DNA from: Chthoniobacterales bacterium
GTDB lineage: Bacteria; Verrucomicrobiota; Verrucomicrobiia; Chthoniobacterales; UBA6821
Assembly (NCBI GenBank): GCA_035287205.1
Contig: DATEBV010000367.1
Location: forward strand, 3,869-67,868
Direction of reading: 5' to 3'
Length of the DNA: 64,000 nucleotides
Part shown: in pieces, positions 4,350 through 57,413 of the stretch
How the letters are laid out: each line of letters begins with the position of its first letter
How positions within the stretch are numbered: the first letter of the stretch is position 1
Notes under the pieces: model-generated
What the model saw: only the letters and a program-made list of their open reading frames with translations
What the model was told of the DNA's origin: nothing
The model's database searches: none
Program-made: the position numbers and the translations under genes

Positions 4350-4430
4350 ATAGTTGTTAGTTATTAGCTCTTGGTTGTTAGTTGACTTTTTCGCTCTTGC
4401 TCAAAAGGTTATCAAAGCAAAGCGAAGTTT

Positions 4431-4608
4431 ATAAGTATTCGGCTAACTCAGGGGATAAAATTTTTCCTAAACATATTGGAATCCTCTCCTGAAGCGATTT
4501 TGAGAGTAAAAAGATTCGTTCTTTCCTTGTCACGAAGTGACCAAAAATCAACTTAAACTTAAACTTATAACTTAAACTAACTATTCGGCCTGTTGGCCGA
4601 ATAGTTAT
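4431..4608 (+). mobile_element. RE-1L copy
   Basis: ataagtattcgg...cttgtcacgaagtgaccaaaaatcaacttaaacttaaac...ctattcggcctgttggccgaatagttat. The last base overlaps the stop of the minus-strand GT-C gene. Confidence 0.8.
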
Positions 4609-6529: not shown

Positions 6530-8167
6530 TTGAACTCGTTGACCTCTTGCCCATGGAATACGATGAATGCCCAAAATGCAAGCGAAGTGAGAACTAAAAA
6601 ATCAGAAGAATTTGTGAATACATTCAACGAACCAAAGCAACTACGAACAACGCACTGCGAATTACCAACACCTACTCTTTTGTGGACCGCTTGCGCCTAT
6701 CGCAAGGCTATCGCCCATTATCTGAATCTCATTATTCCGAGGGGATCCTCGCTTTTAGAAATTGGATGTGGTTCGGGGGTTTTACTGCAGTTATTACAAG
6801 GGGTGAATAAAATGGGAATTGATCCCGATGTGAAGGCTGTTACTGCTGCCGCTTTGCTCAATCCCGAGGCAGAGCTCTTCGTCGCACGTGGGGAAGAATT
6901 TGTTCCTTCCTTAACGCCTGATGTCATTGTACTTTCTGATACGCTTAACCATGTTGACGATGTGCAGGCTGTTTTAGAAAAAGTGCATTCTTATGCTCAG
7001 TCGTCAACACGGCTAGTTACTACCTGTTATAATACTCTTTGGCGGCCTGCCTTGGCCTTGGCTACTTTATTTAGGTTAAAGGCTCCTCAACCGCCAATAA
7101 ATTGGCTTTCACGGCATGATCTTGAAAATCTCCTCGAGTTGTCTGATTGGGAAATTATTCGAGAGGAATCACGCATTCTTTGTCCGCTTGAGATACCCTT
7201 TTTATCCACTCTTCTTAATCGCTGGATTGCACCATTAGTTCCTTGTTTTTGTTTAGCTATTATTCTGATCGCACGGCCGAGATCATCAGGGAGGATGACT
7301 CTTAACGATAGAGCTCTTTCAAAACTCGCTTCTGCTGATGAAGTGCAAGGAGTCGACGGCGCTGAAAAATTCGAGTGGCAGGAGCTACTCGATGCTTCGA
7401 GCACCGGCGCGACGCAGCAATTCGCAGCAGAAGTAGAGTTTTCAAAGCGCTCTAGTGTATCGGTAATTATTCCGGCCCGTAACGAGTCCGGCAATATAGC
7501 TGCCGCTGTCGCACGTACGCCTGCAATGGGATTGTGGACGGAGCTTATTTTTATTGAAGGAAATTCAACGGATGACACATGGGCAGTAATTCAACAAGTC
7601 AAAGTTGCCCATCCCGAATGTCGTATTAAAATTGCCCAACAGCCGGGTCGCGGCAAAGGAGATGCTGTCCGTACAGGGTATGCCATGGCGGAAGGTGATA
7701 TTTTAATGATTCTCGATGCTGATTTGACCGTGCCTCCAGAAGATCTTCCGAAATTTTATCAAGCGGTAGCGAATGGATCTTGTGAATTTGCCAATGGGAG
7801 TCGTTTGGTTTATCCCATGGAGAAAAAGGCGATGCAGTTTCTTAATCTTTGCGCTAATAAATTTTTTGGAATCGCATTTTCGTGGCTGTTGGGCCAGCAG
7901 GTGAAGGATACGCTTTGTGGAACGAAAGTTTTAACGCGAGAAAATTATTTAAAAATTGCGGCGAATCGATCCTACTTTGGTAACTTTGATCCTTTTGGTG
8001 ATTTTGATCTTCTTTTTGGCGCGAGTAAATTAAACCTAAAAATTCGTGATATTCCTGTGCGTTATCGTGAACGAACTTACGGTGAAACTAATATCAGCCG
8101 TTGGAGTCATGGGGCTTTGCTCTTTAGGATGCTTGGCTTTGCGGCACGAAAGTTGAAATTTGTTTAA
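6530..8167 (+). CDS. Bifunctional class I SAM methyltransferase / family 2 glycosyltransferase fusion
   Basis: N-terminal 'LLEIGCGSGVLL' (SAM motif I), one TM segment, then GT2 motifs 'SVIIPARNE', 'ILDADLT' and 'NGSRLVYP'. TTG start at 6530 is uncertain (ATG at 6563). RE-3 copy 7316-7447 is in frame between the domains. Confidence 0.65.
   Translation: MNSLTSCPWNTMNAQNASEVRTKKSEEFVNTFNEPKQLRTTHCELPTPTLLWTACAYRKAIAHYLNLIIPRGSSLLEIGCGSGVLLQLLQGVNKMGIDPDVKAVTAAALLNPEAELFVARGEEFVPSLTPDVIVLSDTLNHVDDVQAVLEKVHSYAQSSTRLVTTCYNTLWRPALALATLFRLKAPQPPINWLSRHDLENLLELSDWEIIREESRILCPLEIPFLSTLLNRWIAPLVPCFCLAIILIARPRSSGRMTLNDRALSKLASADEVQGVDGAEKFEWQELLDASSTGATQQFAAEVEFSKRSSVSVIIPARNESGNIAAAVARTPAMGLWTELIFIEGNSTDDTWAVIQQVKVAHPECRIKIAQQPGRGKGDAVRTGYAMAEGDILMILDADLTVPPEDLPKFYQAVANGSCEFANGSRLVYPMEKKAMQFLNLCANKFFGIAFSWLLGQQVKDTLCGTKVLTRENYLKIAANRSYFGNFDPFGDFDLLFGASKLNLKIRDIPVRYRERTYGETNISRWSHGALLFRMLGFAARKLKFV
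7316..7447 (+). repeat. RE-3 copy, in frame (44 codons) between the MT and GT2 domains
   Basis: Termini CTTTCAAAACTCGCTTCTGCTG / CAGCAGAAGTAGAGTTTTCAAAG (19/22 inverted repeat). Encodes ...ASADEVQGVDGAEKFEWQELLDASSTGATQQFAAEVEFSK. Confidence 0.85.
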
Positions 8168-8416: not shown

Positions 8417-10348
8417 ATGTTTCTCCAGCTCTGGCCTTCGATTATTTGGGCTATTCTCATTGGGATAGCCAGTACCTTTCGATGCTGGAAAGGAGCTTTA
8501 TTAACAATACTCTTGGCGCTCTTGCCGATAGTAGCAGGATACATTTACTTTGGTGTTTCTTATTCCTCTGATGAATCATTCCTCGTCGCAGGGGTCATTC
8601 CTTACAGTGATGCTTCCATGCATTTTCGACAAGCAGCGCAGATGGCAGTGGATGGAGTAACACATACAGGTATGAATGGACGATTTCTCTACCCTGCCTA
8701 TTTCTCATCACTCTTAACTATTACAGGGTTACATCTTCTCGGCGCGCAGGTTTTAGTAGGGCTTCTTTTTGCAGCGGCATTGATTGTTACTTTACGCGTT
8801 GTAGCGCGGTGGATCGGTGCTCCAGGGGCCATTGTTGTTGCATTAACTTGCTGGCTTTTTTTTAGAGCACGCTGTTCAGGCCTCGTCATGACTGAAAATC
8901 TTGGGATAACTTGTGGTCTTCTTGCTTTGACCGCGTTACTGATGGCCACTATGCGAAGGAGCCTTCTTTTGCTCTTGCTTGGAATTTTTATATTGGCCTT
9001 AGGTCTTTGTGCACGTCCAGGAGCGCTTGTTGTTTTACCATTAATGATTTTGTTTGCTGGATGGGAGGGATGGAGTAGATGGGGAAAAAGAGAGCATGAA
9101 TGTTCGGCAAGCTCATCAGTAAAATGTGTTCCAATGAATCATCAGGATCCTTCTAATTCTGCCTGCTGTAGCAGGTCTCCACTTCCCTCTTCTATCTTTT
9201 ATCTTCCATCTCCTGCCGCAGCAGCGGCATCTCCCACCTCTCTTAGACCGACTGGCCGAAGAGTCGCCTCATCTCTTATCGCAGCATTGCTCGCTGTTGT
9301 AATGATCATGGCAGCTTTCAGCTCTAATACCCTTCTTTCACATACGCTTTATCAAGGTAAGGTCATTGAGAATGGAAATTTTGCATTTACTCTTTATGGA
9401 ATGCTTACGGGAGGGAAATGGTCCGACAATCTTTCTTGGTCTCATTGGAATGCACCACTTGTGATGAAGGAGAGCCTGAAATTAATTCAAGCAAAACCAC
9501 AGCTTCTTGTCTTCGGCGCTGCCCGAGCTTACAAAGAAGCATTTTCTCGGCGTATCTTTTTTATGTTTAATCATGAGTCTCGTCTTGCCACGCTGTTGCT
9601 GCTTTTAGCTGCGGTCGGCCTTGTCGCTTTATGGAGAATGAAACCACTACGCCCGCATGCTCTTTGGTTGACGTTAATGGCTCTGGGAATTTTACTCTCA
9701 CTTCCCTTTGTTCCACCGTGGGATGCCGCAGAGAGGCCATTTGCTGTAACAGTACCTTTTCAAGCTCTCTTTGCAGGTATTGGTCTTTTTGCTTTGCTTC
9801 GAATGGCAACAGTTCATAACTTATTTTCACAGTTGCCTTCAGCAATAAAGGGCTTTGTTGCTCTGGTATTAGAGCGGTTAGTATTTTATAAGATCCAAGA
9901 AAGCGTTACTAAAGAACCAAGAGAATGGTTTTCTTTATCTTTTTTATGGGTTCTTGTGGTAATAGTTTTTTCATTAAGCGTGCCGCTGCCACTGCTCCAC
10001 AAGTTTGTTATTTTATACACTCAAGAAGAGTCTCGTCGAAGCTCTATTGAATTACATCCAGGATCGATGACTGTATTAAATGCTAAAAACTTTACTGATT
10101 TTCGTCGGCGTTTAGCGCCTTTTCTTGATCATAATCCACAAGAAGCAGTTCTTTTTTCTCTTGTTACTGATCAAACGGTATTAGGTATCAATTGGGGAAG
10201 TAAAAATTTTGATCGCTGTGCGGTTCTTAACGGTGTATCAGAGATGGTCGACTTTAAAGGATGGAGGGTCGATCAGCGACTTTGCAAGCGTTCAGATCGA
10301 CCTCCTTTGGAGGAAGGACCTGAATCAAATAATCCAACTGCGAAATAG
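8417..10348 (+). CDS. Polytopic membrane protein, GT-C-like (function unknown)
   Basis: ORF track starts at GTG 8330 inside RE-1S copy 8251-8383; the first ATG after the repeat is 8417. Many TM helices, with first-loop 'SSDESF/YSDASMHF'. Internal in-frame RE-1V at 9096-9267. The last 19 codons and the stop come from antisense RE-2 (10291-10368). Confidence 0.45.
   Translation: MFLQLWPSIIWAILIGIASTFRCWKGALLTILLALLPIVAGYIYFGVSYSSDESFLVAGVIPYSDASMHFRQAAQMAVDGVTHTGMNGRFLYPAYFSSLLTITGLHLLGAQVLVGLLFAAALIVTLRVVARWIGAPGAIVVALTCWLFFRARCSGLVMTENLGITCGLLALTALLMATMRRSLLLLLLGIFILALGLCARPGALVVLPLMILFAGWEGWSRWGKREHECSASSSVKCVPMNHQDPSNSACCSRSPLPSSIFYLPSPAAAAASPTSLRPTGRRVASSLIAALLAVVMIMAAFSSNTLLSHTLYQGKVIENGNFAFTLYGMLTGGKWSDNLSWSHWNAPLVMKESLKLIQAKPQLLVFGAARAYKEAFSRRIFFMFNHESRLATLLLLLAAVGLVALWRMKPLRPHALWLTLMALGILLSLPFVPPWDAAERPFAVTVPFQALFAGIGLFALLRMATVHNLFSQLPSAIKGFVALVLERLVFYKIQESVTKEPREWFSLSFLWVLVVIVFSLSVPLPLLHKFVILYTQEESRRSSIELHPGSMTVLNAKNFTDFRRRLAPFLDHNPQEAVLFSLVTDQTVLGINWGSKNFDRCAVLNGVSEMVDFKGWRVDQRLCKRSDRPPLEEGPESNNPTAK
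9096..9267 (+). mobile_element. RE-1V (172-nt variant), in frame inside the membrane-protein gene
   Basis: Degenerate termini atgaatgttcgg...ccgaagagtcgc. The interior matches copy 54868-55039 (ttctaatt.tgcctgc...ctccacttcc...catctcccacctctc). Confidence 0.7.
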
Positions 10349-13655: not shown

Positions 13656-13727
13656 TTCAGATTCCCTCTTTCGGAGGAAGAATCTGAAGTAAATAGTCGA
13701 ACTATGAGTTGTAGAATAAAGACATTG
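13656..13727 (-). repeat. RE-2 copy (intergenic, rmlC-wzm)
   Basis: ttcagattccctctttcggaggaagaatctgaagtaaatagtcgaactatgagttgtagaataaagacattg. Confidence 0.7.
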
Positions 13728-13827
13728 TTGCTTCGCTTTCTTTCCTTGTCACGAAGTGACCAAAAATTAACTTAAACTTAAACTTATAACTTAAACTAAC
13801 TATTCGGTCTGCAGGCCGAATAGTTGC
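13728..13827 (+). mobile_element. RE-1L, 3' part only
   Basis: cttgtcacgaagtgaccaaaaattaacttaaacttaaac...ctattcggtctgcaggccgaatagttgc. Ends 8 nt before the wzm ATG. Confidence 0.75.
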
Positions 13828-13834
13828 ATTCCAG

Positions 13835-18917: not shown

Positions 18918-21902
18918 ATGCATCCATTGTCTCTTTTATTTACTTTTCTCCTTTTTGCATATTTTTGTATTGCGGGAAAAGCTTTTATGCTGGCTATAAA
19001 CTTGCCAGGATCGTGCTTAAGATCATGGTTAATTGCTCCTGTTATGGGGTTCTCATTGCAGATCTTAATTGTAAGTATCATTAATCAAGCTGGATATCCT
19101 GTGGAGAAATTTGCACGTTGGGAGGCAGTTTTAACTCTGCTAATCGCTATTGCTATTTTTCTTTGGAAACGGCCTATCTTTCCTTGGCGTTACTTAAGTC
19201 CCTTTGCCGGATCTTCTCTTATCGTTTTATTTTATGCAGGATGGCCGCTACTGCTTTTAGGCATGGGATGGCTTTCTTACTGTAATGATGATATGGCAAA
19301 TTACTGTTTGGCCGCAAAGAGGCATCTTCATCATGGATTTTTTAGTGTTCCCACGATAGAAGAATTACAAGGCACTGATTATTCTCAATATTATTATTTT
19401 ATGCATGTTGGGGGCTTCTTGCGTTATGGGAGTGAATTATTAATTTCATGGGTTTCTGGAGTAACAGGGCTTAATCCATTAAAAATTTTTATGCCTACCA
19501 TTATAGCTCTAGGAATGGGGCTTCCACCTATTACTGCGGCCTTAGCACGTGCAGGACGCGCTAAGTATGCTGTGATGGTAGTTTCTTCACTACTTCTTGC
19601 TCTGAGTCCTCTCTTTCTTTTGGGAATGTTCTACCAACTTATTGCTCAAATGGCCGGCCTTGGACTGCTGTGTGGAACAGCGACTCTCATGATGGACGAG
19701 AGAAAACTTGCATCAAAACAATCGTTTCTGCGAATGTCTCTCGGGTTGGGTACCCTGGGAGCTGCATTTTGTGTGACGTATCCAGAGCTTACCCCTTTCT
19801 GTGGTCTTGGGTTTCTATTATGGATTGTTGTAAGAAGCATCAAATCATTATCTATCCCATGGAGTAAATATTCGCTTAACCCATTGGGAGAATGTGCTAA
19901 TGATTCAACTCATTATCAAGGTGATCCTTCAAATTTAAATCAGGGCATCAATCAACCTCCCACCTCTCACCTCCTACCTTTCACCACTATTCGGCCTGTT
20001 GGCCGAATAGTTACCTCTTGGAGGCCTATAGTGTTGTGTTTATTGTCTGGCGTTGTTGTTCTAACGTGGCTTCGTTATAATATATTTGTCTACTTATTAA
20101 CTATTATAGAACAACTGCAAGGTGGAACTCATGCTATGGAGAGCGACATTCTTTTTCCTTATTTTTTAGTTCCTAGCGGAATACCTTCTTTATTCGGATT
20201 TCTTTCGATTTCAGGATCTTTTAGTAAGATTCAAGGATATGGACTCATGTTTATTTCAATAATATTTTTGATTCTTTTTACTGGATTAGTGATGCATTCT
20301 ATAAGGAAAGGGAAGGGGCATTCTTGTATTGCGCTTATTATGTTATTGGTAGGAGGATTACTTTTCTACAAGCAGGTCGGTTTTGGAACATTTAAGTTAG
20401 CAATGTTCATCCAACCATTTATTGCTATTGAACTAGCCTTGTTTTTTTGCAGCCTTGGTCTTATGCAACTGCTTGTATGGGTGGTGTTTTACTGTATTTT
20501 TCAATTTCCTGTCGGTTTCTTTTATGGAAAAACATCTCTTGGTTTACATCATGCCCAGTTTGTCGAAATTCCAGGAGCATCAAGTAGAAATTTAGATATT
20601 ACGAACAGAGAGAATTTTTCCGTGGTTAGTGTAGAGAGTGCGCATCTTGTGATTGAAAAGTTTGCAGCATGCGTGGCGCAGGGACATCCTCTTGTGTTTA
20701 ATATGAAAAATAGCATTGCTGAATTTGGAGCAGCAGCAGCACCACCATTTTTTTTAGATCTTATAGCCCGATTTCATCTTTATGTAAAGGAGACTGCTTC
20801 TGTAAGTGATTTAGTTAAAGAAAATATGATGATGTTTCAGGAAAAAAAACTTCTTGGAACAAGTATCAAGTATTCACTACGGCAACAAGATACTACTGCG
20901 ACGAGAGTAAGACCACCGAGAGATATTGAAATTTTTAATGGATTGCTATCTAATAATGAAATAGGGAAAGATTTTTTTCAATCCACAAAGCTTCTTCCAG
21001 AGGAGGTGTCTCTTACATTTGTTAATTCTCATAGGGGAGAGCATTATTATGGATGTTTTAAACGCAAGGCCATTTCATTTTATCAAAATCAAAACGATCC
21101 TTATTCTCGAGTACAGAGTTTGTCTGGAATTGGACCATACTTTTTATTTCAAGTAGATCCTCCATCACAAGAAATTTACTTACGGGTAGCAGTAACAAAG
21201 TCTATTTTTGGTAAGGAGAGAACATCTCTTTACCAACATGCAGTAGTCAAAGGAGAGCAAGATAAAAATGCTGATTTTAAAGGAAATGGGGCTGCTAATC
21301 TGTATATTGGTCCTATTAAGCCGTTTGATTGGAATGGAACTAGTTATGTAGCTCTTGATTTTGGCGAAGAAGGCCAACAACCCATTAAAGATACGACCGG
21401 AATTATGGGGCTTTATCGAAAAGAACAATCGATTGATCCTCGCTACCTTGTAGGGTATGCCCGTGATATTTCAGCCATCACCGCAGATCATTATCGTATT
21501 ATGGAAAGGCCACGAGAAGTTAGTAATTTTCCAAAAGATCTGGCAGAGGCGAAGTCGTTAGAATTCTCAGGATGGTATGAGGATGGATGGATATCACAAC
21601 ATTCTTATGTTATCCTAGGGTCAGATAAAAAAGCGGATAGTTTGGTTATTAAAGGAGTAGTTCCAGGGCTTAAAAGGTTAGTTACTGAGGGACAACGAAT
21701 TACTATATTTATTAATGGAGTGGAAATTTGCCATCAGCAAAAGATAGCACCGGGCGCTTTTGAGTTAAAGTTTAACGTGCCTCAGAAAAAGGAGAGCAGT
21801 CCTTCTACTCGGGTAGATATAGTTTTTAACATAGCAGAACAGCTTCCTGCGCCTGATTTTAGGCCTGCTTCTGCTAAGATTAACTATTTAGGTCTCAACT
21901 AA
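18918..21902 (+). CDS. Large membrane protein (GT-C-like N-terminal half plus a soluble C-terminal half of about 450 aa)
   Basis: 994 aa. More than 12 TM helices with first-loop 'NDDMANY'. In-frame RE-1S at 19864-20014. No recognisable motif in the C-terminal half. Confidence 0.5.
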   Translation: MHPLSLLFTFLLFAYFCIAGKAFMLAINLPGSCLRSWLIAPVMGFSLQILIVSIINQAGYPVEKFARWEAVLTLLIAIAIFLWKRPIFPWRYLSPFAGSSLIVLFYAGWPLLLLGMGWLSYCNDDMANYCLAAKRHLHHGFFSVPTIEELQGTDYSQYYYFMHVGGFLRYGSELLISWVSGVTGLNPLKIFMPTIIALGMGLPPITAALARAGRAKYAVMVVSSLLLALSPLFLLGMFYQLIAQMAGLGLLCGTATLMMDERKLASKQSFLRMSLGLGTLGAAFCVTYPELTPFCGLGFLLWIVVRSIKSLSIPWSKYSLNPLGECANDSTHYQGDPSNLNQGINQPPTSHLLPFTTIRPVGRIVTSWRPIVLCLLSGVVVLTWLRYNIFVYLLTIIEQLQGGTHAMESDILFPYFLVPSGIPSLFGFLSISGSFSKIQGYGLMFISIIFLILFTGLVMHSIRKGKGHSCIALIMLLVGGLLFYKQVGFGTFKLAMFIQPFIAIELALFFCSLGLMQLLVWVVFYCIFQFPVGFFYGKTSLGLHHAQFVEIPGASSRNLDITNRENFSVVSVESAHLVIEKFAACVAQGHPLVFNMKNSIAEFGAAAAPPFFLDLIARFHLYVKETASVSDLVKENMMMFQEKKLLGTSIKYSLRQQDTTATRVRPPRDIEIFNGLLSNNEIGKDFFQSTKLLPEEVSLTFVNSHRGEHYYGCFKRKAISFYQNQNDPYSRVQSLSGIGPYFLFQVDPPSQEIYLRVAVTKSIFGKERTSLYQHAVVKGEQDKNADFKGNGAANLYIGPIKPFDWNGTSYVALDFGEEGQQPIKDTTGIMGLYRKEQSIDPRYLVGYARDISAITADHYRIMERPREVSNFPKDLAEAKSLEFSGWYEDGWISQHSYVILGSDKKADSLVIKGVVPGLKRLVTEGQRITIFINGVEICHQQKIAPGAFELKFNVPQKKESSPSTRVDIVFNIAEQLPAPDFRPASAKINYLGLN
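19864..20014 (+). mobile_element. RE-1S copy, in frame inside the 994-aa membrane-protein gene
   Basis: 151 nt, GTAAATATTCGC...CTATTCGGCCTGTTGGCCGAATAGTTAC. The flanking 8-mers cccatgga and ctcttgga match at 6 of 8 positions (decayed TSD). Confidence 0.85.
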
Positions 21903-35390: not shown

Positions 35391-35430
35391 CATTTTTAAA
35401 AATTAAATTATTCGGGTTAGTTGTGTTAGC

Positions 35431-35568
35431 GTAAATATGCGGTTAACCCATTTGTAGAATGTGCTCCAATTTATCATCGGAACGATCCTTCAAATTTTAA
35501 CCAGCATACCGATTAACCTTCAGCCTTCAACTTTTAGCCTCTATTCGGCCTGTTGGCCGAATAGTTAC
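35431..35568 (+). mobile_element. RE-1S copy, 40 nt downstream of tRNA-Thr
   Basis: GTAAATATGCGG...CTATTCGGCCTGTTGGCCGAATAGTTAC. The flanking 8-mers gtgttagc and gtggtagt match at 6 of 8 positions. Confidence 0.85.
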
Positions 35569-35621
35569 GTGGTAGTTATTATAAAAAAGAGATAATGAAA
35601 TGTTGCTTTGCATTAGTTGTT

Positions 35622-35763
35622 AATTTCGTTGGAAATTCGCTGATGCTGATGAAGTACAAGAAGCCACGGAGCGCAGAATTTGAGTGTACAGCAGTACTCG
35701 ATAATTCAAGCACCGGAGGCGACGCTGTAATTCAGTAGCAGCAGTAGAATTTCCAACGAAATT
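35622..35763 (+). repeat. RE-3 copy, intergenic, abutting the gmd ATG
   Basis: Perfect 17-bp termini AATTTCGTTGGAAATTC / GAATTTCCAACGAAATT. The interior is homologous to 7316-7447. Confidence 0.85.
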
Positions 35764-36786
35764 ATGAAGAAGGCACTAATTACTGGTATAACAGGTCAAG
35801 ATGGTTCCTACCTTGCAGAGCTTCTGCTTGAAAAAGGCTATGAAGTTCATGGGGTCATACGACGCGCATCGACGTTTAATACAAGTCGTATCGATCATCT
35901 TTATAATGACCCTCATATTCATGGAACGCGGCTTTTTCTTCACTATGGTGATTTGGCCGATTCAGTGCAGATGGTAAAGTTGCTTTATAGTTTGAAGCCC
36001 GATGAGATTTATAATCTTGGGGCCCAGAGCCATGTTCGAGTCTCTTTTGATATTCCAGAATACACTGGCGATGTTACAGGATTAAGTACAGTGCGATTAT
36101 TAGAGGCGATTCGTGAGGCAGGTCTTGCGCAAGATGTCCGTTTTTATCAAGCTTCCTCATCAGAGATGTTTGGGCAAGTTCATGAAGTGCCGCAGCGGGA
36201 AACTACCCCTTTTCATCCTCGTTCTCCTTATGGTTGTGCGAAGGTTTTTGCTTACTGGCTCACAGTAAACTATCGTGAGGCTTACAATCTCCATGCTTCC
36301 AATGGAATTCTTTTTAATCATGAGAGTCCTCGTCGTGGAGAAACGTTTGTGACGCGAAAGATCACGCGTGCTGCCACAAGAATTAAGTTAGGACTTCAAG
36401 ATAAGCTTTTTCTTGGCAATCTCGATGCCCAGCGCGACTGGGGTTATGCAAAAGAATACGTGGAAGTGATGTGGTTGATGTTGCAACAGGATAAAGCAGA
36501 TGACTACGTTTGTGCAACAGGAGAGATGCATACGATTCGGGAGTTTTGTGAGGAATGCTTTGGATTGCTTGATTTAGATTGGAAGGAATATGTTGAGCAC
36601 GATAGTCGTTATGAACGTCCTAGTGAGGTAGAGCTCCTCATTGGAGATCCTTCTAAATTGAAACGTCAAATTGGTTGGGAACCAAAGGTAAAGTTTAAGG
36701 AGCTTGTTCGTATTATGACCGAAGCAGATCTTGAGTTAGCAGAACAGGATCTATTGCTTTGCAGTAAGATTAAGTTGAGAGTTTAA
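35764..36786 (+). CDS. gmd: GDP-mannose 4,6-dehydratase
   Basis: '[27 protein letters not shown]', '[10 protein letters not shown]' and 'NHESPRRG' are canonical Gmd. The ATG directly abuts RE-3 copy 35622-35763. Confidence 0.95.
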
Positions 36787-38350: not shown

Positions 38351-38477
38351 AGTAAAAAGTGAAAGGGTATTTTTAGAATTTTGGTCCGAGGTTGGGTTGA
38401 TTTTTTATGTGCGGTGTTATTTTATTTGAACATAATCGATGATCTAATTGTCTTATTTCAGGAAGACAATGGTAGAA

Positions 38478-38676
38478 GTAAATATTCGATTAACCCAGTC
38501 GATAAAATTTGTCTAGCCGTGTAAGAATCCTTTACTGAAGTGATTTCGAGAGCAAAAAACTAGGTGCAAATAAAAATGTCGCTTCACTTTTTACATTGTT
38601 ACGAAGTGACCAAAAATCAACTTAAACTTAAACTGAAAACTTAAACTTATATTCGGCCTGTTGGCCGAATATTTAC
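38478..38676 (+). mobile_element. RE-1L full-length copy with a perfect 8-bp TSD
   Basis: 199 nt. TIR GTAAATATTCG / CGAATATTTAC. TSD TGGTAGAA at 38470-38477 and 38677-38684. The paralogous site near 39971-39990 is empty. Confidence 0.92.
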
Positions 38677-38689
38677 TGGTAGAATAAAA

Positions 38690-41150: not shown

Positions 41151-41457
41151 GTAAATATTTGACAGCCCTAATCAGAAAATTTTGTTGAAGTTCTTTATTA
41201 AAGTGACCTTGAAAGCAAAAAGTTGGGAGGAAGGAAAAATATCGCTTTGCTTCTCTCCTTGTCACGAAGGTAAATATTCGGTTAACCCATCAGTAAAATG
41301 TGCTAGAGAATCAATTAATTATCAGAGCGATCTATCAAATCTTAATCAGCGTATCGATTAGCCTACAGCCTATAGCCTACAGCCTATAGCCTCTATTCGG
41401 CCAGCAGGCCGAATAGTTACTCACGAAGTGACCAAAAATCAACTTAAACTTAAACTC
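41151..41457 (+). mobile_element. RE-1L copy interrupted by RE-1S (composite)
   Basis: Starts gtaaatatttgac. It is interrupted at 41269/41421 and resumes tgaccaaaaatcaacttaaacttaaac. It lacks its own terminal hairpin. Confidence 0.75.
41270..41420 (+). mobile_element. RE-1S copy nested inside an RE-1L copy, with a perfect 8-bp TSD
   Basis: 151 nt. Flanked by TCACGAAG (41262-41269) and TCACGAAG (41421-41428). It splits the RE-1L motif gtcacgaagtgacc. Confidence 0.9.
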
Positions 41458-41470
41458 TTACCTATTTCTT

Positions 41471-42916
41471 ATGTTCTCAAACATCCTCTCTATCATTGGC
41501 ATCTCTCTCGAGGTGATTATCCTTTTTAATCTTTTAATTGTTGTTCATGAGTTAGGGCATTTTCTGGCAGCCCGTTCTCGTGGGCTTGTGGTGGAAAAAT
41601 TCGCTATTTGGTTTGGAAAGCCCATTTGGTCGAAGACCATTAATGGAATTGAATATCGGTTAGGATGTATTCCTGCTGGAGGGTTTGTCGCCATCCCTCA
41701 GTTAGCGCCGATGGAAGCACTCGAGGGAGAGAGTAAGCAAAAGTATTCCGATCTGCCGCCTGTTTCCCCACTTGATAAAATTATTGTTGCCGCAGCAGGA
41801 CCGGTTTTTAGTCTTTTGCTGGCTTTAGCATTTGCTTGTGTTGTTTGGGGTGTTGGGCGTCCTGTAAGTGAGGCAGAGAAGACCGCTGTGATAGGTTATG
41901 TTATGCCTGATGGTCCTGCTGCTAAGGCAGGCTTACAGCCAGGAGATAAAATTCTTGCGGTGAATGCACATCCTGTCACACGTATTAATGGGATGGGACG
42001 GATGAGTGATAGCGTGTCTTGGAATGTGGCTACAAGCCAATCACCTTTGATTCCGATTCGCTTTGAGCGCGATGGGGTGGAGCACATTGTTGAAATTGAG
42101 CCCCTTGTGCAGCCTCGCCAAGGATGGGGTAGAAAGAATCTTCGTCAGATTCAGATCTTGCCGGCGCAGACGCCAATGATTTCTAAAATTATCCCTCAAA
42201 GTCCTGCCTCGGCAGCAGGACTTCTTTCTGGCGATCTGGTGGTGATGGCCAATGGAGTAAAATTATTGAGTCCTATTGCCTTGGCAGAAATTCTTAATAA
42301 TACCAAGGGACAGGCGGTAACGTTGGTGATCAGTCGTCGTATGGGAGATGCTTTAAAAACTTTTTCAGTGAATATTTTACCTCTCATTCCTGTAGGGGAG
42401 AAGCAGTCGCGTCTTGGTATTGTCTGGGATCAACGTGGTGTTGTGACGCTCTCTTATCCTAATCCTTGGGATCAAATTGCGGCAAGTGTGAGTACGATGT
42501 GGGAGACCATCTCGGCAGTGATGACACCTCATTCGGAAATTACGGTGCAGCACCTGAGCGGTCCTGTTGGTATTATGAGGATTTATTATATGCTTTTTGA
42601 AAGTCCCATGGGATGGCGTTTAGCTCTTTGGTTCAGTGTGGTGCTTAATGTCAACTTGGCTCTACTGAATCTGCTCCCTTTCCCTGTACTTGATGGGGGG
42701 CACATTCTTCTGGCAATTTGTGAATGGGCAATTCGTAAGCCGATCGAACATCGCGTGGTAGAATGGATTCAGAGTGGCTTTGCTCTTATTCTGATGGGAT
42801 TCATGTTGTATGTAACTTTTTTTGATCTTCTCGATTTGCCGCCCCTTATGAGAGGAAAATCGAATCCCCAAGAAAAATCAGCAGTGATGCAGTTTGCCTC
42901 GCCAGTTGGAAAATGA
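41471..42916 (+). CDS. rseP: RIP (site-2) zinc metalloprotease RseP
   Basis: 'HELGHFLAAR' (HExxH), PDZ-like central regions, and 'NLLPFPVLDGGH' (NxxPxxxLDG). Confidence 0.9.
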   Translation: MFSNILSIIGISLEVIILFNLLIVVHELGHFLAARSRGLVVEKFAIWFGKPIWSKTINGIEYRLGCIPAGGFVAIPQLAPMEALEGESKQKYSDLPPVSPLDKIIVAAAGPVFSLLLALAFACVVWGVGRPVSEAEKTAVIGYVMPDGPAAKAGLQPGDKILAVNAHPVTRINGMGRMSDSVSWNVATSQSPLIPIRFERDGVEHIVEIEPLVQPRQGWGRKNLRQIQILPAQTPMISKIIPQSPASAAGLLSGDLVVMANGVKLLSPIALAEILNNTKGQAVTLVISRRMGDALKTFSVNILPLIPVGEKQSRLGIVWDQRGVVTLSYPNPWDQIAASVSTMWETISAVMTPHSEITVQHLSGPVGIMRIYYMLFESPMGWRLALWFSVVLNVNLALLNLLPFPVLDGGHILLAICEWAIRKPIEHRVVEWIQSGFALILMGFMLYVTFFDLLDLPPLMRGKSNPQEKSAVMQFASPVGK

Positions 42917-44742
42917 CTTACTGTCGCAGCCTTTATCATTATGAGCGGCGCCTTTCTCGCGTTGTAACTGTTGGTGATCTCAAGATGGGTGGAGATGAAC
43001 CAATACGGGTTCAATCGATGTTGACTTCTGACACGATGGATACAGAAGCGTGTGTTCGTGAGACTTTAGGTTTAGTTGCTGTGGGGTGTGAAATAGTTCG
43101 TATCACAGCACCTACAGTGAAGGATGCAGCTAACTTAAAAAATATTCATGAGGCCTTGCGTGCCGTAGGCTGTGAGGTACCGCTGGTGGCTGATATTCAT
43201 TTTAAGCCTGATGCAGCTTTGGAAGCGGCTCAATGGGTGGAGAAGGTTCGCATTAATCCTGGTAATTTTGCGGACTCCAAGAAGTTTCATGTTCGTGAGT
43301 ATAGCGATATTGAATATGAAACGGAGCTGGAAAGGATTCGAGATCGATTCGCTCCGTTAGTACACCTTTGCAAGGAGCGAGGTGTGGCGATGAGAATTGG
43401 AACGAATCACGGTTCGCTTAGTGACCGTATCATGAATCGTTTTGGAGATTCACCGCGAGGAATGGTAGAAAGTGCTTTAGAGTTTGCTCATATTGCTCGG
43501 GATCTTGATTATCATGAATTTGTTTTTTCCATGAAGGCTTCTAATCCGAAGGTAATGATTGAGGCTTATCGATTGTTGATAGCTCGTCTTGAAGCAGAAG
43601 GATCTGATTGGAATTATCCCATTCATCTTGGCGTGACCGAGGCTGGGGATGGAGAAGATGGACGTATTAAAAGTGCTATTGGTATTGGTTCACTTCTTGC
43701 CGATGGTATTGGCGATACGGTTCGGGTTTCACTCACGGAAGATAGCGAGAGAGAGATTCCCGTAGCGCAGGCACTAGTTAGAAGATGGCAGGGAGAAAAT
43801 GGAAGTCAGGATGCAGATTACAGGGAGCAGGTTGCAGGGAATTCATCTCGTGCCGCCGCCGCATGTCCTACCTGGCCTCTTTTTAGTTATGAACGGCGTA
43901 CTTCTGAATCTCTTTGTTTACAAGGAGTGAACCTAGGTGGAGAAGAGCCAATCCGTGTTGTTGTGTTACGTGAGACATATCAAGCAGTTGCTCCTAAATT
44001 GGCATCCATGGGAGAGTATCAACCAGAGCTTATTGAAGAGGATCTTCCCATTAAAGAAATTGATCCTTCTTCTGATGCTGAGGTAGCCGCCATGAATGCC
44101 GAAGAAAGCCCTACTCTTGTTACAGTAAGGGATGGTACGGCAATGTCGCCGATTGCAGCCTTTCGCATGTTAGCAGCACGTCTTGCAGCAAGGCATCCTA
44201 TTTTACTCAAAGATACATTAGACTTCTTTCGAAACCCTACTGGTGCCGCGAATTGTGACGTCGCGTCGGTGTTGGAGCAGAATTCTACTAATAATCTGCT
44301 TGCTTCAGCGACTACTATTGGTTCGTTGCTTTGTGATGGTATTGGAGATGCCATTATGATTCGTAGAGAGAAGGCGCCAGGCGCTTCGTTGCGTCTTGCT
44401 TATAATATTCTTCAAGCGGCAGGCACACGGATTTTTAAAACCGATTATGTAGCATGTCCTTCGTGTGGGAGAACGCTTTTTAATCTTCAGAACACAACCG
44501 CTCGTATTAAGGCTGCTACAGGACATCTCAAAGGAGTTCGTCTTGCAGTAATGGGGTGTATTGTTAATGGTCCCGGAGAAATGGCCGATGCCGATTTCGG
44601 TTATGTCGGAGGGGCCCCAGGTAAAATCAATCTCTATGTCGGAAAGAAGCCTATAAAATTTAATATTCCGGAAGCAGAGGCTGTAGAACAACTTGTTCAA
44701 CTCATCCGTGAGCATGGTAAATGGGTTGACGCAGTAGTTTGA
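42913..44742 (+). CDS. ispG: 4-hydroxy-3-methylbut-2-en-1-yl diphosphate synthase, long form with inserted domain
   Basis: 'IRVQSM', 'VADIHF', 'RINPGN' and the Fe-S cysteines 'ACPSCGRT' and 'GCIVNGPGE'. 609 aa. A half RE-3 copy lies in frame at 44226-44280 within the insert domain. Confidence 0.9.
   Translation: MTYCRSLYHYERRLSRVVTVGDLKMGGDEPIRVQSMLTSDTMDTEACVRETLGLVAVGCEIVRITAPTVKDAANLKNIHEALRAVGCEVPLVADIHFKPDAALEAAQWVEKVRINPGNFADSKKFHVREYSDIEYETELERIRDRFAPLVHLCKERGVAMRIGTNHGSLSDRIMNRFGDSPRGMVESALEFAHIARDLDYHEFVFSMKASNPKVMIEAYRLLIARLEAEGSDWNYPIHLGVTEAGDGEDGRIKSAIGIGSLLADGIGDTVRVSLTEDSEREIPVAQALVRRWQGENGSQDADYREQVAGNSSRAAAACPTWPLFSYERRTSESLCLQGVNLGGEEPIRVVVLRETYQAVAPKLASMGEYQPELIEEDLPIKEIDPSSDAEVAAMNAEESPTLVTVRDGTAMSPIAAFRMLAARLAARHPILLKDTLDFFRNPTGAANCDVASVLEQNSTNNLLASATTIGSLLCDGIGDAIMIRREKAPGASLRLAYNILQAAGTRIFKTDYVACPSCGRTLFNLQNTTARIKAATGHLKGVRLAVMGCIVNGPGEMADADFGYVGGAPGKINLYVGKKPIKFNIPEAEAVEQLVQLIREHGKWVDAVV
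44226..44280 (-). repeat. RE-3 half copy, in frame in ispG
   Basis: ctttcgaaaccctactggtgccgcgaattgtgacgtcgcgtcggtgttggagcag aligns with the left half of 52456-52587. Encodes FRNPTGAANCDVASVLEQ. Confidence 0.65.
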
Positions 44743-45953: not shown

Positions 45954-47296
45954 GCCGATCTCCCAGTAAAACAAAGCCTAAGGTAGGGCTCTTAACCTGT
46001 ATTTTTCTTGTGATGGCTATCATGGTGGGTAATGGGATCTATACAAGTCTTGGAATGCAGCTTTTGAATATTTCTAGCGGATTTACGATTCTTTCTCTTT
46101 GGGCATTGGGTGGCATTTGTGCTCTTTGCGGAGCTCTTTCATATGCAGAATTGGCATCGCTCATGCCTCACTCTGGGGGAGAGTATTACTATCTGTCAAA
46201 AATCTATCATCCAGCGCTTGGCACGATGGCCGGTTTTATTGCACAGATAGCTGGCTTTATTGCGCCAATTTCCTTAGCTAGTATGGCTTTTGGAAAATAT
46301 CTTCAGGCATTCTTTCCTTCAACTAATCCGATGGTTTCTTCCATGGTCTTGGTAACAGTGATCACGGGAATGCATCTTGTAACGCTAGGATTTAGCGCTG
46401 TGTTTCAAGATATCATTACAGGTTTAAAATTTCTTCTGATAGGGGTTATTCTCTATCTTGGGCTTCGTCATGCTACAATATCACCGACGATTTTTCTTCC
46501 TTCGATGGTAGGAATGAAAGAACTTTTTTCTCCAAGCTCTGGAGTTGCTTTAATTTTTTGCTTCTATGCTTATTCAGGATGGAATTCTTCCACCTATATT
46601 GCCGATGATGTTACTTCTTCTCATCGTACGGTTGGACGCTCTCTGGTGATTGGAGCTATTCTGGTTATTGTGATCTATATGCTTATGAATGCTATTTTTC
46701 TCATGGCTGCACCAGTGGGAGAGTTGCGCGGTGTTTTGGATGTCGGTCGTGTGGTGGCCACACATCTTTTGGGTCAAGAAGGCGGTCGTATGATGACAGT
46801 AATGATTGCCTTTGGACTTGTTGCTGGAGTGAGTGCGATGGTTTGGGTCGGGCCTCACATTACGCAGATGATGGGAAGAGATCTTCCTGCCTTGCGTTGG
46901 TTAGCTCCTGTTTCCAAAGGGAATGTTCCTCTCCATGCGATGCTTATTCAGTATATTCTGGTAATGATTTTGCTTTCGACGGGAGCTTTTAAAATGGTCC
47001 TTGTAGCGACTCAATTTCCTATCATTTTTTGTGAATTCTTAGGAGTTATTGGAGTGATTGTTTTACGCTTTCAGCATCGTAAGATCTACGATCCTTCCAT
47101 ACCAAAGAAAGATCGCCAAGGTTTTCGTTGTCCTCTCTATCCCTTGCCTCCTCTCTTTTTTGCAGTGATCAGCATCATGGCTCTCACATACACAACGATC
47201 ACCAATCCTCTGGAAGGGATCGTTGGGATTGCGCTGATTATTATTGCTATTGCTCTCTACCCTCTCCTCCATCGAGAGAATGCAATAGAGGAATAA
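45875..47296 (+). CDS. APC-family amino acid permease (paralog 1, RE-2-derived N-terminus)
   Basis: 473 aa with 12 TM helices. Colinear with the paralog at 47703-49004, most positions identical by eye. The first about 27 codons (MSSIHTTPSQSDHLVQILPPQEGGSGG) come from RE-2 copy 45869-45953. Confidence 0.75.
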   Translation: MSSIHTTPSQSDHLVQILPPQEGGSGGRSPSKTKPKVGLLTCIFLVMAIMVGNGIYTSLGMQLLNISSGFTILSLWALGGICALCGALSYAELASLMPHSGGEYYYLSKIYHPALGTMAGFIAQIAGFIAPISLASMAFGKYLQAFFPSTNPMVSSMVLVTVITGMHLVTLGFSAVFQDIITGLKFLLIGVILYLGLRHATISPTIFLPSMVGMKELFSPSSGVALIFCFYAYSGWNSSTYIADDVTSSHRTVGRSLVIGAILVIVIYMLMNAIFLMAAPVGELRGVLDVGRVVATHLLGQEGGRMMTVMIAFGLVAGVSAMVWVGPHITQMMGRDLPALRWLAPVSKGNVPLHAMLIQYILVMILLSTGAFKMVLVATQFPIIFCEFLGVIGVIVLRFQHRKIYDPSIPKKDRQGFRCPLYPLPPLFFAVISIMALTYTTITNPLEGIVGIALIIIAIALYPLLHRENAIEE

Positions 47297-47702: not shown

Positions 47703-49004
47703 ATGAGGACAAACCAAAAAATTGGAATTTTTACTTCTGTTATTCTTGTGATGGCCATCATGGTCGACACTGGAATTTACACGAGCCTAGGGTTGCAGCT
47801 TTTAAGTATTTCCAGTGCTTTTACAATTCTTACCCTTTGGGTACTAGCTGGAATAGGCGCTCTCTGTGGAGCTCTTTCCTATGCAGAGTTGGCATCGCTG
47901 ATGCCTCATTCCGGAGGAGAGTATTACTATCTGTCAAAAATCTATCATCCGGCAGTTGGTACGATGGCTGGAATTATTGGCCAACTAGCTGGTTTTTCCG
48001 CTCCTATTGCTTTAGCCAGTATGGCTTTTGGAAAATATTTTCAAGCACTCTTTCCTTCGAGTAACGCGATGCTTTCTTCTATTATTTTAGTGACTGTAGT
48101 AACGGGAGCTCACCTTTTTAATCTCCGTTATAGTGCCATTTTTCAAAATAGCGTTACCGGTTTAAAATTTCTCCTGATTGCTATTTTTCTCTATGTTGGG
48201 TTTCGTTATGCCACGATAACGCCAAAAATTTTTCTTCCTTCAAAAGTGGCGATAAAAGAGCTTTTTCACCCAAGTTCTGGAGTAGTTTTGGTCTTTTGTT
48301 TCTATGCTTACTCAGGTTGGAATTCCTCTATCTATATTGCCGATGATGTCGTTTCTGCACGGCGTAATGTAGGACGATCTTTAATCATTGGATCTCTCCT
48401 GGTTATTCTGATTTATCTGCTGATGAATGTTGTTTTCCTTATGGCGGCACCACTAGGAGAGTTACGTGGTGTTCTGGATATTGGTCGTGTTGTGGCTTTT
48501 CACCTTTTGGGCCAAGAAGGAGGATATATGATGGCAGGACTCATTGCTGTTGGGCTTATTGCCGGCGTGAGTGGGATGGCGTGGCTGGGACCTCACATTA
48601 CACAAATGATGGGAAGAGATCTTCCTGCCTTGTGCTGGTTGGCTCCGGTGTCCAAAAGTAATATTCCTCTTAGAGCGATGTTTTTTCAATACATCTTGGT
48701 TCTTTTAATGCTCATGACTTCGTCTTTTAAGGCTATTTTGATCAGTGCAGAAATCCCTTTGATTTTTTGTAATCTTTTAGGAGTTGTGGGAGTGGTTATA
48801 CTACGGTGGAAACATCATAAGATAGACGATTATGAAGGATTTAAATGCCCATTCTATCCGCTCCCTCCTCTCTTATTTGCAACGATCAGCATGATCGCGT
48901 TAATTTACACTATGATCACTAATCCTATGGAGGGAATCATTGGAGTTACTATTATCATCGGAGCATTATTACTTTATCCGCTTTTTATTATTCGAGCAAC
49001 GTGA
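47703..49004 (+). CDS. APC-family amino acid permease (paralog 2)
   Basis: Tandem paralog without the RE-2 leader. ATG 47703 (ORF track uses TTG 47697). Confidence 0.75.
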   Translation: MRTNQKIGIFTSVILVMAIMVDTGIYTSLGLQLLSISSAFTILTLWVLAGIGALCGALSYAELASLMPHSGGEYYYLSKIYHPAVGTMAGIIGQLAGFSAPIALASMAFGKYFQALFPSSNAMLSSIILVTVVTGAHLFNLRYSAIFQNSVTGLKFLLIAIFLYVGFRYATITPKIFLPSKVAIKELFHPSSGVVLVFCFYAYSGWNSSIYIADDVVSARRNVGRSLIIGSLLVILIYLLMNVVFLMAAPLGELRGVLDIGRVVAFHLLGQEGGYMMAGLIAVGLIAGVSGMAWLGPHITQMMGRDLPALCWLAPVSKSNIPLRAMFFQYILVLLMLMTSSFKAILISAEIPLIFCNLLGVVGVVILRWKHHKIDDYEGFKCPFYPLPPLLFATISMIALIYTMITNPMEGIIGVTIIIGALLLYPLFIIRAT

Positions 49005-50667: not shown

Positions 50668-50740
<73 letters not shown>

Positions 50741-50744
50741 CACT

Positions 50745-50890
50745 CTACATATTAGGCCAACAGGCCGAATATAAGTTTAAGTTAAAAGTTTAAGTTTAAG
50801 TTGATTTTTGGTCACTTCGTGACAAGGTAAGAAGCGAAGCGACATTTTTATTTTCTCGAGTTTTTTTGCTCTCGAAGTCGCTTCATAGCC
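50745..50890 (-). mobile_element. RE-1L copy (reverse orientation), 4 nt after tRNA-Phe
   Basis: ctacatattaggccaacaggccgaatataagtttaagtt...ggtcacttcgtgacaagg is the reverse complement of the RE-1L 3' half. Confidence 0.75.
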
Positions 50891-51257: not shown

Positions 51258-51280
51258 TTTTTGCTTGATGCTTGCTAGCA

Positions 51281-57266: not shown

Positions 57267-57413
57267 AAGTTTAAGTTTTAAGTTTAAGTTTAAGTTTAAG
57301 TTGGTTTTTAGTCACTTCGTGACAATGAGAAAAGTGAAGCGATATTTTTATTTGCACCTAGTTTTTGCTCTCGAAATCGCTTCAGTAAAGGATTCTTTCA
57401 CGTCTAGACAAAT
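57240..57413 (-). mobile_element. RE-1L copy (reverse orientation) supplying the TAG stop of the GH gene
   Basis: ctattcgggcaacaggccgaaTAGaagtttaagtt...agtcacttcgtgacaatg...gtctagacaaat. The stop codon 57264-57266 lies inside the hairpin. Confidence 0.8.

Follow-up and report, generated by a model that had tools for sequence, protein, structure and literature searches.

In 2000 and 2002 Ogata et al. described the Rickettsia palindromic elements RPE-1 to RPE-3 (as related in PMC2229807, PMC10969869 and PMC3767692), and the title of the 2002 paper, as cited in PMC10969869, calls in-frame protein-coding palindromes "unique". The question of a hotspot or a common origin was raised for the RPEs in PMC3767692, which also lists an RPE in a recB-family exonuclease, and for the guanylate kinase of Rickettsia the activity with the insert was compared with that without it (Abergel et al., 2006, cited in PMC2229807). 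Fusion of an open frame to a gene is also reported for other bacterial MITEs, namely the 107-bp form of Correia, ERIC, YPAL and QMITE1 of Coxiella (PMC2229807, PMC10969869, PMC5896051). In-frame palindromes have been considered peculiar to Rickettsia. The repeat RE-3, described here from a member of the Chthoniobacterales, displays the same phenomenon with comparable intensity in an unrelated phylum.

The window, i.e., the whole stretch of 64 kb that was analyzed, comes from an extremely repeat-rich genome; repeats make up 21% of the window. Copies of RE-3 were located in the window with blastn and nhmmer. The copies, their host genes and two overlapping antisense frames are the following.

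6530–8167, + strand: host gene for a methyltransferase (Methyltransf_23) fused to a family 2 glycosyltransferase (MT-GT2); the gene probably starts farther downstream than the TTG at 6530
7310–7453, + strand: RE-3 copy with type A ends and a 144-nt body, forward phase 0, MT-GT2 residues 261–308
7087–7578, − strand: antisense ORF of 163 aa over the copy 7310–7453, most likely not a gene
35619–35765, + strand: intergenic RE-3 copy with indels, decayed
42913–44742, + strand: host gene ispG (GcpE), of the long form normal for Verrucomicrobiota
44219–44276, − strand: remnant of the right half of RE-3, 58 nt, in frame in ispG (DFFRNPTGAANCDVASVLE), E 7.5e-8
51272–54505, + strand: host gene for an AddB-like PD-(D/E)XK nuclease, ORF of 1077 aa
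52450–52593, − strand: RE-3 copy of type A (TCT variant), 144 nt, reverse phase 1, AddB-like residues 393–441
52878–52922, − strand: remnant of the left end of RE-3, about 45 nt, in frame in the AddB-like gene, E 6.9e-5
53431–53574, − strand: RE-3 copy with type B ends, 144 nt, TTA on both sides, reverse phase 1, AddB-like residues 720–768
54723–57266, + strand: host gene for an 847-aa protein with an F5/8 type C (discoidin) domain
56103–56246, + strand: RE-3 copy of type B, 144 nt, forward phase 0, residues 461–508 of the discoidin protein
56084–56281, − strand: antisense ORF of 65 aa over the copy 56103–56246, most likely not a gene

RE-3 is thus a real repeat, with four full and two remnant copies in four intact genes and one decayed copy between genes. 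The initial annotation had called it a palindromic repeat lying in frame within real genes, which the copies, their fold and the open host frames bear out; its six genic copies are indeed there if the remnants are counted, but in four genes rather than in five, and the length of 132 nt, or 146 nt in a variant, which it gave for the element was wrong, the body being exactly 144 nt in all four full genic copies of the window. Across unrelated genes the full copies of the window are 78–90% identical to the copy 7310–7453. Of 29 copies examined, 28 have a core of 103 nt; the exception is the most decayed copy, which lacks the anchor motif.

The element is dispersed: to the seven copies in the 64-kb window come 28 in 143 kb of a related JGI assembly (18 loci). 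No match to TCGAGCACCGGCGCGACGNNGCNATTC was obtained in a scan of 185,579 species genomes, the RE-3 lineage being absent from those representatives. With a profile of the forward peptide 116 proteins were found among 1.84 billion cluster representatives; 43 of them are at least 250 aa long, and in these 45 of the 49 matched stretches are internal. All ten host clusters that were looked up are from MAGs of Chthoniobacterales and Verrucomicrobia, and outside the window most host proteins of RE-3 lack a Pfam domain. The profile of the reverse peptide returned in a word-indexed protein search only two short proteins and missed also the AddB-like protein of the window itself.

RE-3 ends in terminal inverted repeats of about 19 nt, which read AGACTTCTTTCAAAACTC / GAGTTTGGAAAGAAGTCT in type A and GAACCTGTTTTCAAAGTC / GACTTTGAAGACAGGTTC in type B, the best parse placing the boundaries of the two types one base apart. 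In the 207 kb of window and JGI loci together these repeats occur outside RE-3 copies only once, as a solitary match in the loci, and not at all in the window. Perfect direct repeats of 3 nt flank 14 of 27 copies, 9 of 18 of type A (AAT or ATT) and 5 of 9 of type B (TTA). The target duplication follows the pattern A-W-T in type A, while that of type B is TTA. The flanking triplets are imperfect in many copies, among them the copy 7310–7453, where GAT (7307–7309) and AGT (7454–7456) form a degenerate target duplication; the copy 56103–56246 is flanked by TTA at 56100–56102 and 56247–56249. An empty site was found in locus L004, which reads GCTTC-AAT-AAAG where the filled site in L008 reads GCTTC[AAT]AGAC...GTCT[AAT]AAAG, the difference being exactly 147 nt and a single AAT remaining; this lone empty site is paralogous, lies within another repeat and shows 85–88% identity.

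A duplication of TA, as in the IS630/mariner type, was rejected for type A, since the empty site would then exceed the observed one by 3 nt. A hairpin of the REP or IS200-IS605 type, moved by RAYT or TnpA, was rejected because such hairpins insert beside a fixed target and duplicate nothing, whereas a target duplication is evident for RE-3 from its 3-nt direct repeats and its empty site; identity with REPs is also disfavored by size, 144 nt for RE-3 against 20–40 bp for REPs (PMC3733652). RE-3 carries no transposase gene of its own, its sole open frames being read-through frames of 48 codons, and no transposase or longer element with RE-3 ends was found in the 207 kb. Judged by its sequence, RE-3 is a MITE by virtue of its small size, terminal inverted repeats, target duplication and dispersed copies, although support for the target duplication is limited, since there is one empty site only and many flanks are degenerate.

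RE-3 forms one long hairpin. The copy 7310–7455 folds with −72 kcal/mol (z = −6.7), which none of 200 shuffled sequences reached. Across the copies 96.9% of the cells are paired and 20 of the 44 pairs show compensatory double changes; none of 500 shuffles came up to this level, and controls in which the pairing was slid were 31–46% paired. In the terminal helix, likewise 96.9% paired, 9 of 11 pairs covary. The long imperfect hairpin is kept through compensatory changes. At the gathering thresholds of Rfam only two tRNAs matched in the window, the best match to RE-3 having E = 0.67; a self-splicing intron or known structured RNA was rejected for RE-3, as no Rfam family matches.

Of the six phases of RE-3 only one per orientation contains no stops, namely phase 0 in forward and phase 1 in reverse, and the third codon positions of these two coincide. 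A third phase of each orientation is closed by a TAG at the junction of element and duplication. Body and duplication together are 147 nt or 49 codons, and therefore an insertion of RE-3 never shifts the reading frame. Open frames of 192–1375 codons span 28 of the 35 copies in the window and the 18 JGI loci, an intragenic share that is biased upward because the loci were picked by a pattern derived from coding copies. Within these frames phase 0 is used by every one of the 17 forward copies and phase 1 by every one of the 11 reverse copies; if the phase were free, the chance of this would by our own arithmetic be (1/3)^28, about 4e-14. That every genic copy occupies a permissive phase is beyond chance.

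From the lack of stops and frameshifts we infer that RE-3 is translated within its host proteins. The forward peptide reads ..LASADEVQGVDGAEK..LLDASSTGAT..FAAEVEF... and the reverse peptide ..NSTSA.NC.VAPVLE.SSSSCTLNFSAPSTPCTSSAEAS.., and the conceptual translations of the copies agree with the earlier claim of one characteristic peptide per orientation. The frame that the host does not use fares differently. Among 28 full copies, 11 have a stop in the reverse frame, which in 10 cases is due to the TAT variant of type A; the commonest subfamily is closed in reverse orientation. The reverse frame is closed in 8 of 15 forward-class, 3 of 5 intergenic and none of 8 reverse-class copies (hypergeometric p about 0.008), and closure of the forward frame is seen in 3 of 8 genic copies of the reverse class and in none of 15 of the forward class (p about 0.03). 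Variation between copies is equal at the three codon positions and without 3-base periodicity, so it gives no sign of selection on the peptide.

The statement that RE-3 is kept open in both orientations holds for the phase used by the host, which is always open, but not for the unused frame, which often has stops; moreover, 33% of dinucleotide-shuffled sequences are open in both orientations, so that this openness is by itself not unusual. Similarly, the two antisense ORFs listed at the outset, 7087–7578 and 56084–56281, are both present, but the claim that the antisense strand is also open fails for the copy 53431–53574, which has a stop in the forward frame not used by its host. The ORF 7087–7578 owes its existence solely to the open reverse phase of the copy 7310–7453.

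Comparison of the host proteins with orthologues, already envisaged in the initial annotation, covered three hosts, and close orthologues of MT-GT2, AddB-like nuclease and ispG without the inserts were found. The MT-GT2 fusion is widespread across Verrucomicrobiota, with 440–490 aa, and its closest orthologues (P0003, P0019 and P0031) are fused without an RE-3 insert, which indicates that RE-3 neither made the linker nor is needed for it. These sequences argue that the fusion is ancestral and not made by RE-3. The position of RE-3 between the domains was correctly stated in the initial annotation: the insert (residues 261–308) lies within the sole long stretch of low confidence in the structure model (253–305, pLDDT below 50), which has a confidently folded domain on either side. 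Alignment of the window with the contig of the insert-free orthologue P0003 did not fix the insertion boundaries, the linker DNA being too diverged. Another orthologue (P0001) has at the same linker an insert not recognizable as RE-3. The predicted peptide spanning the MT-GT2 junction is ...LNDRALSKLASADEVQGVDGAEK...

In the AddB-like nuclease the copy 52450–52593 is missing from eight orthologues and the copy 53431–53574 from those compared. In the orthologue P0122 the site that corresponds to the remnant 52878–52922 is occupied by a full RE-3 in reverse orientation, and P0122, P0123 and P0127 have RE-3-like reverse inserts at other sites. An independent ENA assembly (P0121, locus L101) contains the identical gene with the same three RE-3 copies; the predicted peptide across the junction is ...DFFRNSTSAVNCGVAPVLEVSSSSCTLNF... 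Owing to the remnant, ispG has a variable loop that exceeds its counterpart in orthologues by about 14 residues. Of the discoidin protein only the F5/8 type C domain matched solved structures, and in locus L104 the AddB-like orthologue is followed by a gene that is not orthologous to that of the discoidin protein. As far as these alignments tell, RE-3 inserts are located in linkers or variable loops. The intergenic copy 35619–35765, which ends at the ATG (35764) of GDP-mannose 4,6-dehydratase, has stops in both frames used in genes, three in the forward and one in the reverse, and no reading frame runs unbroken across it.

The repeat, its ends, the hairpin, the exclusive use of two phases and the absence from orthologues, all observed directly, are as a whole very probably explained by a non-autonomous transposable element (MITE) of a Chthoniobacterales lineage, which in MT-GT2 would be a passenger in a pre-existing inter-domain linker. 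RE-3 would be moved by a putative transposase. Insertion into a gene in the permissive phase would add a peptide of about 49 residues, presumably nearly neutral, that may survive in a linker or variable loop, and insertion in other phases would truncate the protein and be purged. Surviving copies would then drift, the frame not used by the host gathering stops, and old copies would lose length through in-frame deletions, which may be how the remnants in ispG and the AddB-like gene arose. Whether RE-3 is adapted to coding sequence rather than merely filtered by it is another matter, and we consider adaptation rather doubtful. Genic copies would in that case persist and seed new copies, by which five features could have been shaped: the body that is a multiple of three, the 3-nt duplication, the stop-free phase per orientation, the shared wobble positions and the compensated hairpin. 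Were RE-3 adapted in this way, the family and one or more sister families of that genome would act across the lineage as a generator of protein insertions of 49 residues, in a bacterium other than Rickettsia.

That the peptide or the RNA hairpin has been co-opted, as an interaction or linker module or as a regulatory hairpin of the mRNA, and is kept by selection, would fit the good conservation of the peptide between copies, the compensatory changes that extend well past the terminal repeats, the wobble positions shared by the two used phases and the numerous copies in long proteins. Such a role is nevertheless improbable, since inter-copy variation is equal at the three codon positions, the frame unused by the host decays, the hosts are unrelated and have the inserts in variable loops missing from orthologues, the model confidence over the MT-GT2 insert is low and old copies are undergoing deletion; recent spread at the DNA level explains the conservation. 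It is far less probable still that the genic copies are untranslated chance survivors in decaying pseudogenes: the genome is extremely repeat-rich and most host proteins elsewhere are unannotated, yet the host frames are open for hundreds of codons on either side of RE-3, ispG, the AddB-like protein and MT-GT2 align end to end with orthologues and retain the invariant residues, and 28 of 28 copies are in the permissive phase.

Two further explanations can hardly be entertained. An ancestral domain or linker shared by descent, rather than inserted DNA, is suggested by the occurrence of RE-3 in a linker and by the copy of P0122 at the AddB-like site where the window has a remnant, but the closest orthologues are without the segment, both orientations occur and encode two unrelated peptides, the full copies of the window remain 78–90% identical to 7310–7453 in unrelated genes, some copies are intergenic, the ends are inverted, direct repeats flank the element and an empty site exists. 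Removal of RE-3 after transcription or translation in the manner of an intron or intein, which would leave mature proteins without the insert and for which the very stable hairpin might be a substrate of RNA processing, we regard as equally remote: an open frame would then be unneeded, yet the genic copies are stop-free and have a length that is a multiple of three. In addition, no Rfam family matches, 48 residues are far too short for an intein, and intein-like sequence features were not noticed on inspection of the peptide.

RE-3 provides dozens of natural 49-residue insertions in conserved enzymes (ispG, the AddB-like nuclease and MT-GT2), on which the tolerance of folds for insertions and the growth of linkers and loops can be studied. 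For annotation it follows that antisense ORFs over RE-3, e.g., 7087–7578, are most likely spurious and that the RE-3 peptide gives false similarity among unrelated proteins. Assemblies of the RE-3 lineage break at these repeats.

RE-3 has in common with the RPEs that both are palindromic repeats of 100–150 bp forming long stem-loops, found between genes as well as in frame within many unrelated genes of conserved proteins, that they encode a conserved peptide inserted where the fold tolerates it, and that copies decay, the orthologous sites of relatives holding different or degraded inserts. They differ in that RPEs are from Rickettsiales and RE-3 from Verrucomicrobiota (Chthoniobacterales), that RE-3 has 3-nt flanking direct repeats and an empty site, the target duplication of RPEs being listed as unknown in Table 1 of PMC2229807, and that RE-3, unlike the RPEs, has a body of exactly 144 nt and is used in genes in both orientations, one phase each. 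Compared by description, and with Chthoniobacterales as host, RE-3 is thus an analogue of the RPEs and not a member. Its transposon anatomy, with inverted ends, a 3-nt duplication and an exact 144-nt body, is cleaner than that of the RPEs, and 144 nt plus the 3-nt duplication give a mechanical reason why the reading frame is constantly retained.

With Correia, ERIC, YPAL and QMITE1 the element shares the small size, terminal inverted repeats, target duplications and hairpin transcripts, and also the presence of stop-free variants inside genes and stop-bearing ones between them; the 107-bp and 155-bp forms of Correia parallel the TCT variant plus type B and the TAT variant of RE-3 in reverse orientation. 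These MITEs are mainly intergenic, whereas RE-3 is mostly intragenic in our sample, which is biased, and they usually end in TA, whereas RE-3 is flanked by A-W-T or TTA triplets. Tourist-like MITEs of the IS5 / PIF-Harbinger type have a 3-bp target duplication TWA. RE-3 resembles them in its 3-bp duplication of A and T only (TTA in type B) and its short terminal inverted repeats, but its type A flanks read A-W-T, and the 207 kb contain no cognate transposase or longer element. RE-3 belongs with the known in-frame MITEs such as the RPEs, as a new element from a different phylum.

The 132 nt of RE-3 within the methyltransferase-family 2 glycosyltransferase (MT-GT2) fusion gene (7316-7447, forward; body 7310-7453), used as a query, recovered the following copies from the window, which has a G+C content of about 40% and is very repeat-rich (13.5 of 64 kb, 21%, under repeats in self-comparison):

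52456-52587, strand opposite to that of the query copy, RE-3 copy, 90% identical
56110-56234, RE-3 copy, 83% identical
35633-35756, RE-3 copy, 78% identical
44226-44271 and within 53447-53566, shorter RE-3 matches

A profile search put the tally at five full copies and two remnants. The MT-GT2 copy folds into a single long imperfect hairpin (-72 kcal/mol, z = -6.7; none of 200 shuffles as stable), and the two antisense ORFs that the initial annotation had reported over RE-3 (7087-7578 and 56084-56281) are both present. On these grounds the repeat is real and far beyond chance. Its only intergenic copy in the window (35619-35765) ends exactly at the ATG (35764) of a GDP-mannose 4,6-dehydratase gene and therefore constitutes the immediate upstream region of that gene.

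Alignment of 29 copies with their flanks, from the window and from loci of a related JGI assembly, revealed a core of 103 nt in 28; the exception is the most decayed copy (L014, 3290-3425), which is without the anchor motif. In each of the four full genic copies of the window the body is exactly 144 nt long. The ends fall into two sets, type A (AGACTTCTTTCAAAACTC...GAGTTTGGAAAGAAGTCT), flanked by the 3-nt direct repeats AAT...AAT or ATT...ATT (9 of 18 copies with perfect repeats), and type B (GAACCTGTTTTCAAAGTC...GACTTTGAAGACAGGTTC), flanked by TTA...TTA (5 of 9 copies with perfect repeats, among them the two of this type in the window). Across these subfamilies 96.9% of the cells are paired and 20 of the 44 hairpin pairs have changed on both sides, values reached by none of 500 shuffles, while slid controls were 31-46% paired; the hairpin is maintained. 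No Rfam family matches RE-3, and a search of 207 kb for a longer element sharing its ends found none. The central variant CTGAAAAATTCGAGTGGCAG (7363-7382) is joined to type A ends in the window and to type B ends in L003 (6294-6442, exact) and L002 (7452-7600, diverged), which suggests recombination or gene conversion between the subfamilies.

The single empty site found concerns the copy in L008, which is nested in another repeat. In L004 a paralogue of this outer repeat has the sequence GCTTC-AAT-AAAG and the filled counterpart GCTTC[AAT]AGAC...GTCT[AAT]AAAG, a gain of 147 nt with AAT duplicated; duplication of TA is not compatible with this site. This paralogous site and the flank statistics argue for a probable 3-nt target duplication. 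Because 144 + 3 = 147 nt, or 49 codons, an insertion cannot shift the frame.

Within the body two phases can be stop-free, forward phase 0 and reverse phase 1, whose third codon positions, by our own derivation, share base pairs; the junction-crossing phase of each orientation is closed in the alignments by a TAG, to which the flanking triplet contributes the T and the RE-3 end the AG. Open frames of 192-1375 codons contain 28 of the 35 copies found across window and loci, a share inflated by a search pattern derived from coding copies. All 17 forward genic copies use phase 0, encoding ..SKLAYADEVQGVDGAQKLSVQELLDASSTGATKQFAAEVEF.., and all 11 reverse ones phase 1, encoding ..NSTEAANGFVAPVLEASSSSCTLNFCAPSTPCPSSASATLK..; if phase were unconstrained, the probability would be about (1/3)^28.

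The initial annotation had described the element as open in both orientations. This is correct for the frame used by the host, whereas the other frame is often closed: a reverse-frame stop interrupts 8 of the 15 forward genic copies, 3 of the 5 intergenic ones and none of the 8 reverse genic ones (in 10 of the 11 affected copies through the type A variant CGCTTATGC), and a forward-frame stop interrupts 3 of the 8 reverse genic copies and none of the 15 forward genic ones. Openness in both orientations, also found in 33% of dinucleotide shuffles, is taken alone unremarkable, and variation among the copies lacks a 3-base periodicity. Phase use, stops in the unused frame, shuffles and lack of periodicity together point to a filter imposed by the presumed translation of the host genes rather than to selection of the peptide.

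A second repeat family, unrelated to RE-3, is also read through in frame:

1013-1184, 9099-9263, 19864-20018 and 54868-55039, genic, inside four long ORFs
35430-35568 and 41270-41418, intergenic

All four genic copies use one frame (peptides like KYSVNP.VECA...DPSNLNQ...IRPVGRIV), and in the same orientation both intergenic copies are closed by stops in each of the three frames. RE-3 is thus not the only repeat to be read in frame here; the habit is one of the genome.

MAGs labelled as Chthoniobacterales or Verrucomicrobiota supply the best relatives of the host proteins. In a set of 185,579 species genomes the nearest ispG is only 68% identical and the exact RE-3 pattern has no match; in JGI metagenomes the pattern is found on 18 contigs, all of project Ga0155638, which have many repeat families and no unique sequence in common with the window. 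An independent ENA assembly contains an AddB-like nuclease gene 100% identical to that of the window, with the same three copies, which excludes assembly artefacts as the source of the insertions. A profile built on the window's two forward peptides matched 116 proteins among 1.84 billion cluster representatives, 43 of them at least 250 aa long (largest 3167 aa), and in proteins of this size 45 of 49 matched stretches are internal. Few of these hosts have Pfam domains; the ten host clusters looked up, annotated as hypothetical proteins, derive from MAGs of Chthoniobacterales and Verrucomicrobia. Another host is the gene downstream of the AddB-like orthologue on L104, a related contig. In a PMT-family glycosyltransferase gene of a relative (contig L103) the element is present as two halves (764-837 and 909-992) about 70 nt apart, which could reflect a nested insertion or internal expansion.

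Comparison with orthologues, as the initial annotation had advised, showed the full-length inserts to be missing from close relatives of the MT-GT2 and AddB-like proteins. Across Verrucomicrobiota the methyltransferase-GT2 fusion is a conserved protein of 440-490 aa, and P0003 (best segment 91% identical), P0019 and P0031 are without the insert. In the structure model both domains are confident, and the insert (residues 261-308) is held by a stretch with pLDDT <50 (residues 253-305). RE-3 thus lies in the inter-domain linker, as annotated, but did not create it. The listed ORF begins with a TTG (6530-6690 region) about 40 codons upstream of the orthologue starts; judged from these, the real start is probably later.

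None of the eight aligned AddB-like orthologues has the copy of residues 393-441 or that of residues 720-768; the remnant at residues 536-551 marks the site of a full reverse copy in orthologue P0122, and a fourth site is occupied by RE-3-like reverse inserts in P0123 and P0127. In ispG a 58-nt remnant makes a variable loop about 14 residues longer than in six orthologues. In the discoidin-domain protein RE-3 is read in phase 0 within an ORF of 847 codons, for which a structure search and the L104 neighbour gave no orthologue to compare.

Unrelated inserts of 25-60 residues occur in other Chthoniobacterales, either at these variable sites or elsewhere in variable parts of the same genes: in P0001 and P0020 at the same place in the MT-GT2 linker (that of P0001 not recognisable as RE-3), in the AddB-like P0129 and in ispG (L029:1001-2860). 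Some look repeat-derived (e.g., YRLQAAGYRM, CRLQVTG). Such sites are either insertion hotspots or merely places tolerating insertions.

MITE-like units occupy almost every intergenic spacer of the window; examples of its repeats are:

4426-4608, 13726-13831, 38477-38677, 50736-50885 and 57243-57413

The repeats include a hairpin, TATTCGGCCTGTTGGCCGAATAG, that follows ACTTAA or CCTACAG runs, as well as GAACACAAA(A/G) runs. Two adjacent paralogous genes (45971-47296 and 47709-49004) are about 77% identical. Near the window end (61588-62997), 300-nt units spaced 342-384 nt, with strongly positive AT and GC skew, are probably part of a very large repetitive protein gene extending beyond the window; at the corresponding region of L101, the locus of the independent ENA assembly with the identical AddB-like gene, a product of 1670 aa is called.

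RE-3 has all the properties of a MITE that could be tested here. What defines Rickettsia palindromic elements is that they are palindromic MITE-like repeats inserted in frame into many unrelated genes; to a lesser degree, in-frame insertion is also known from the Correia, ERIC, YPAL and Coxiella QMITE elements (PMC2229807, PMC10969869, PMC3767692, PMC5896051); we found no report of such elements in Verrucomicrobiota. RE-3 behaves like the Rickettsia elements but belongs to a different lineage and is thus not one of them. The phenomenon itself is already known; what is notable is that the architecture is 144 + 3, that both orientations are used and that the window contains a second in-frame family.
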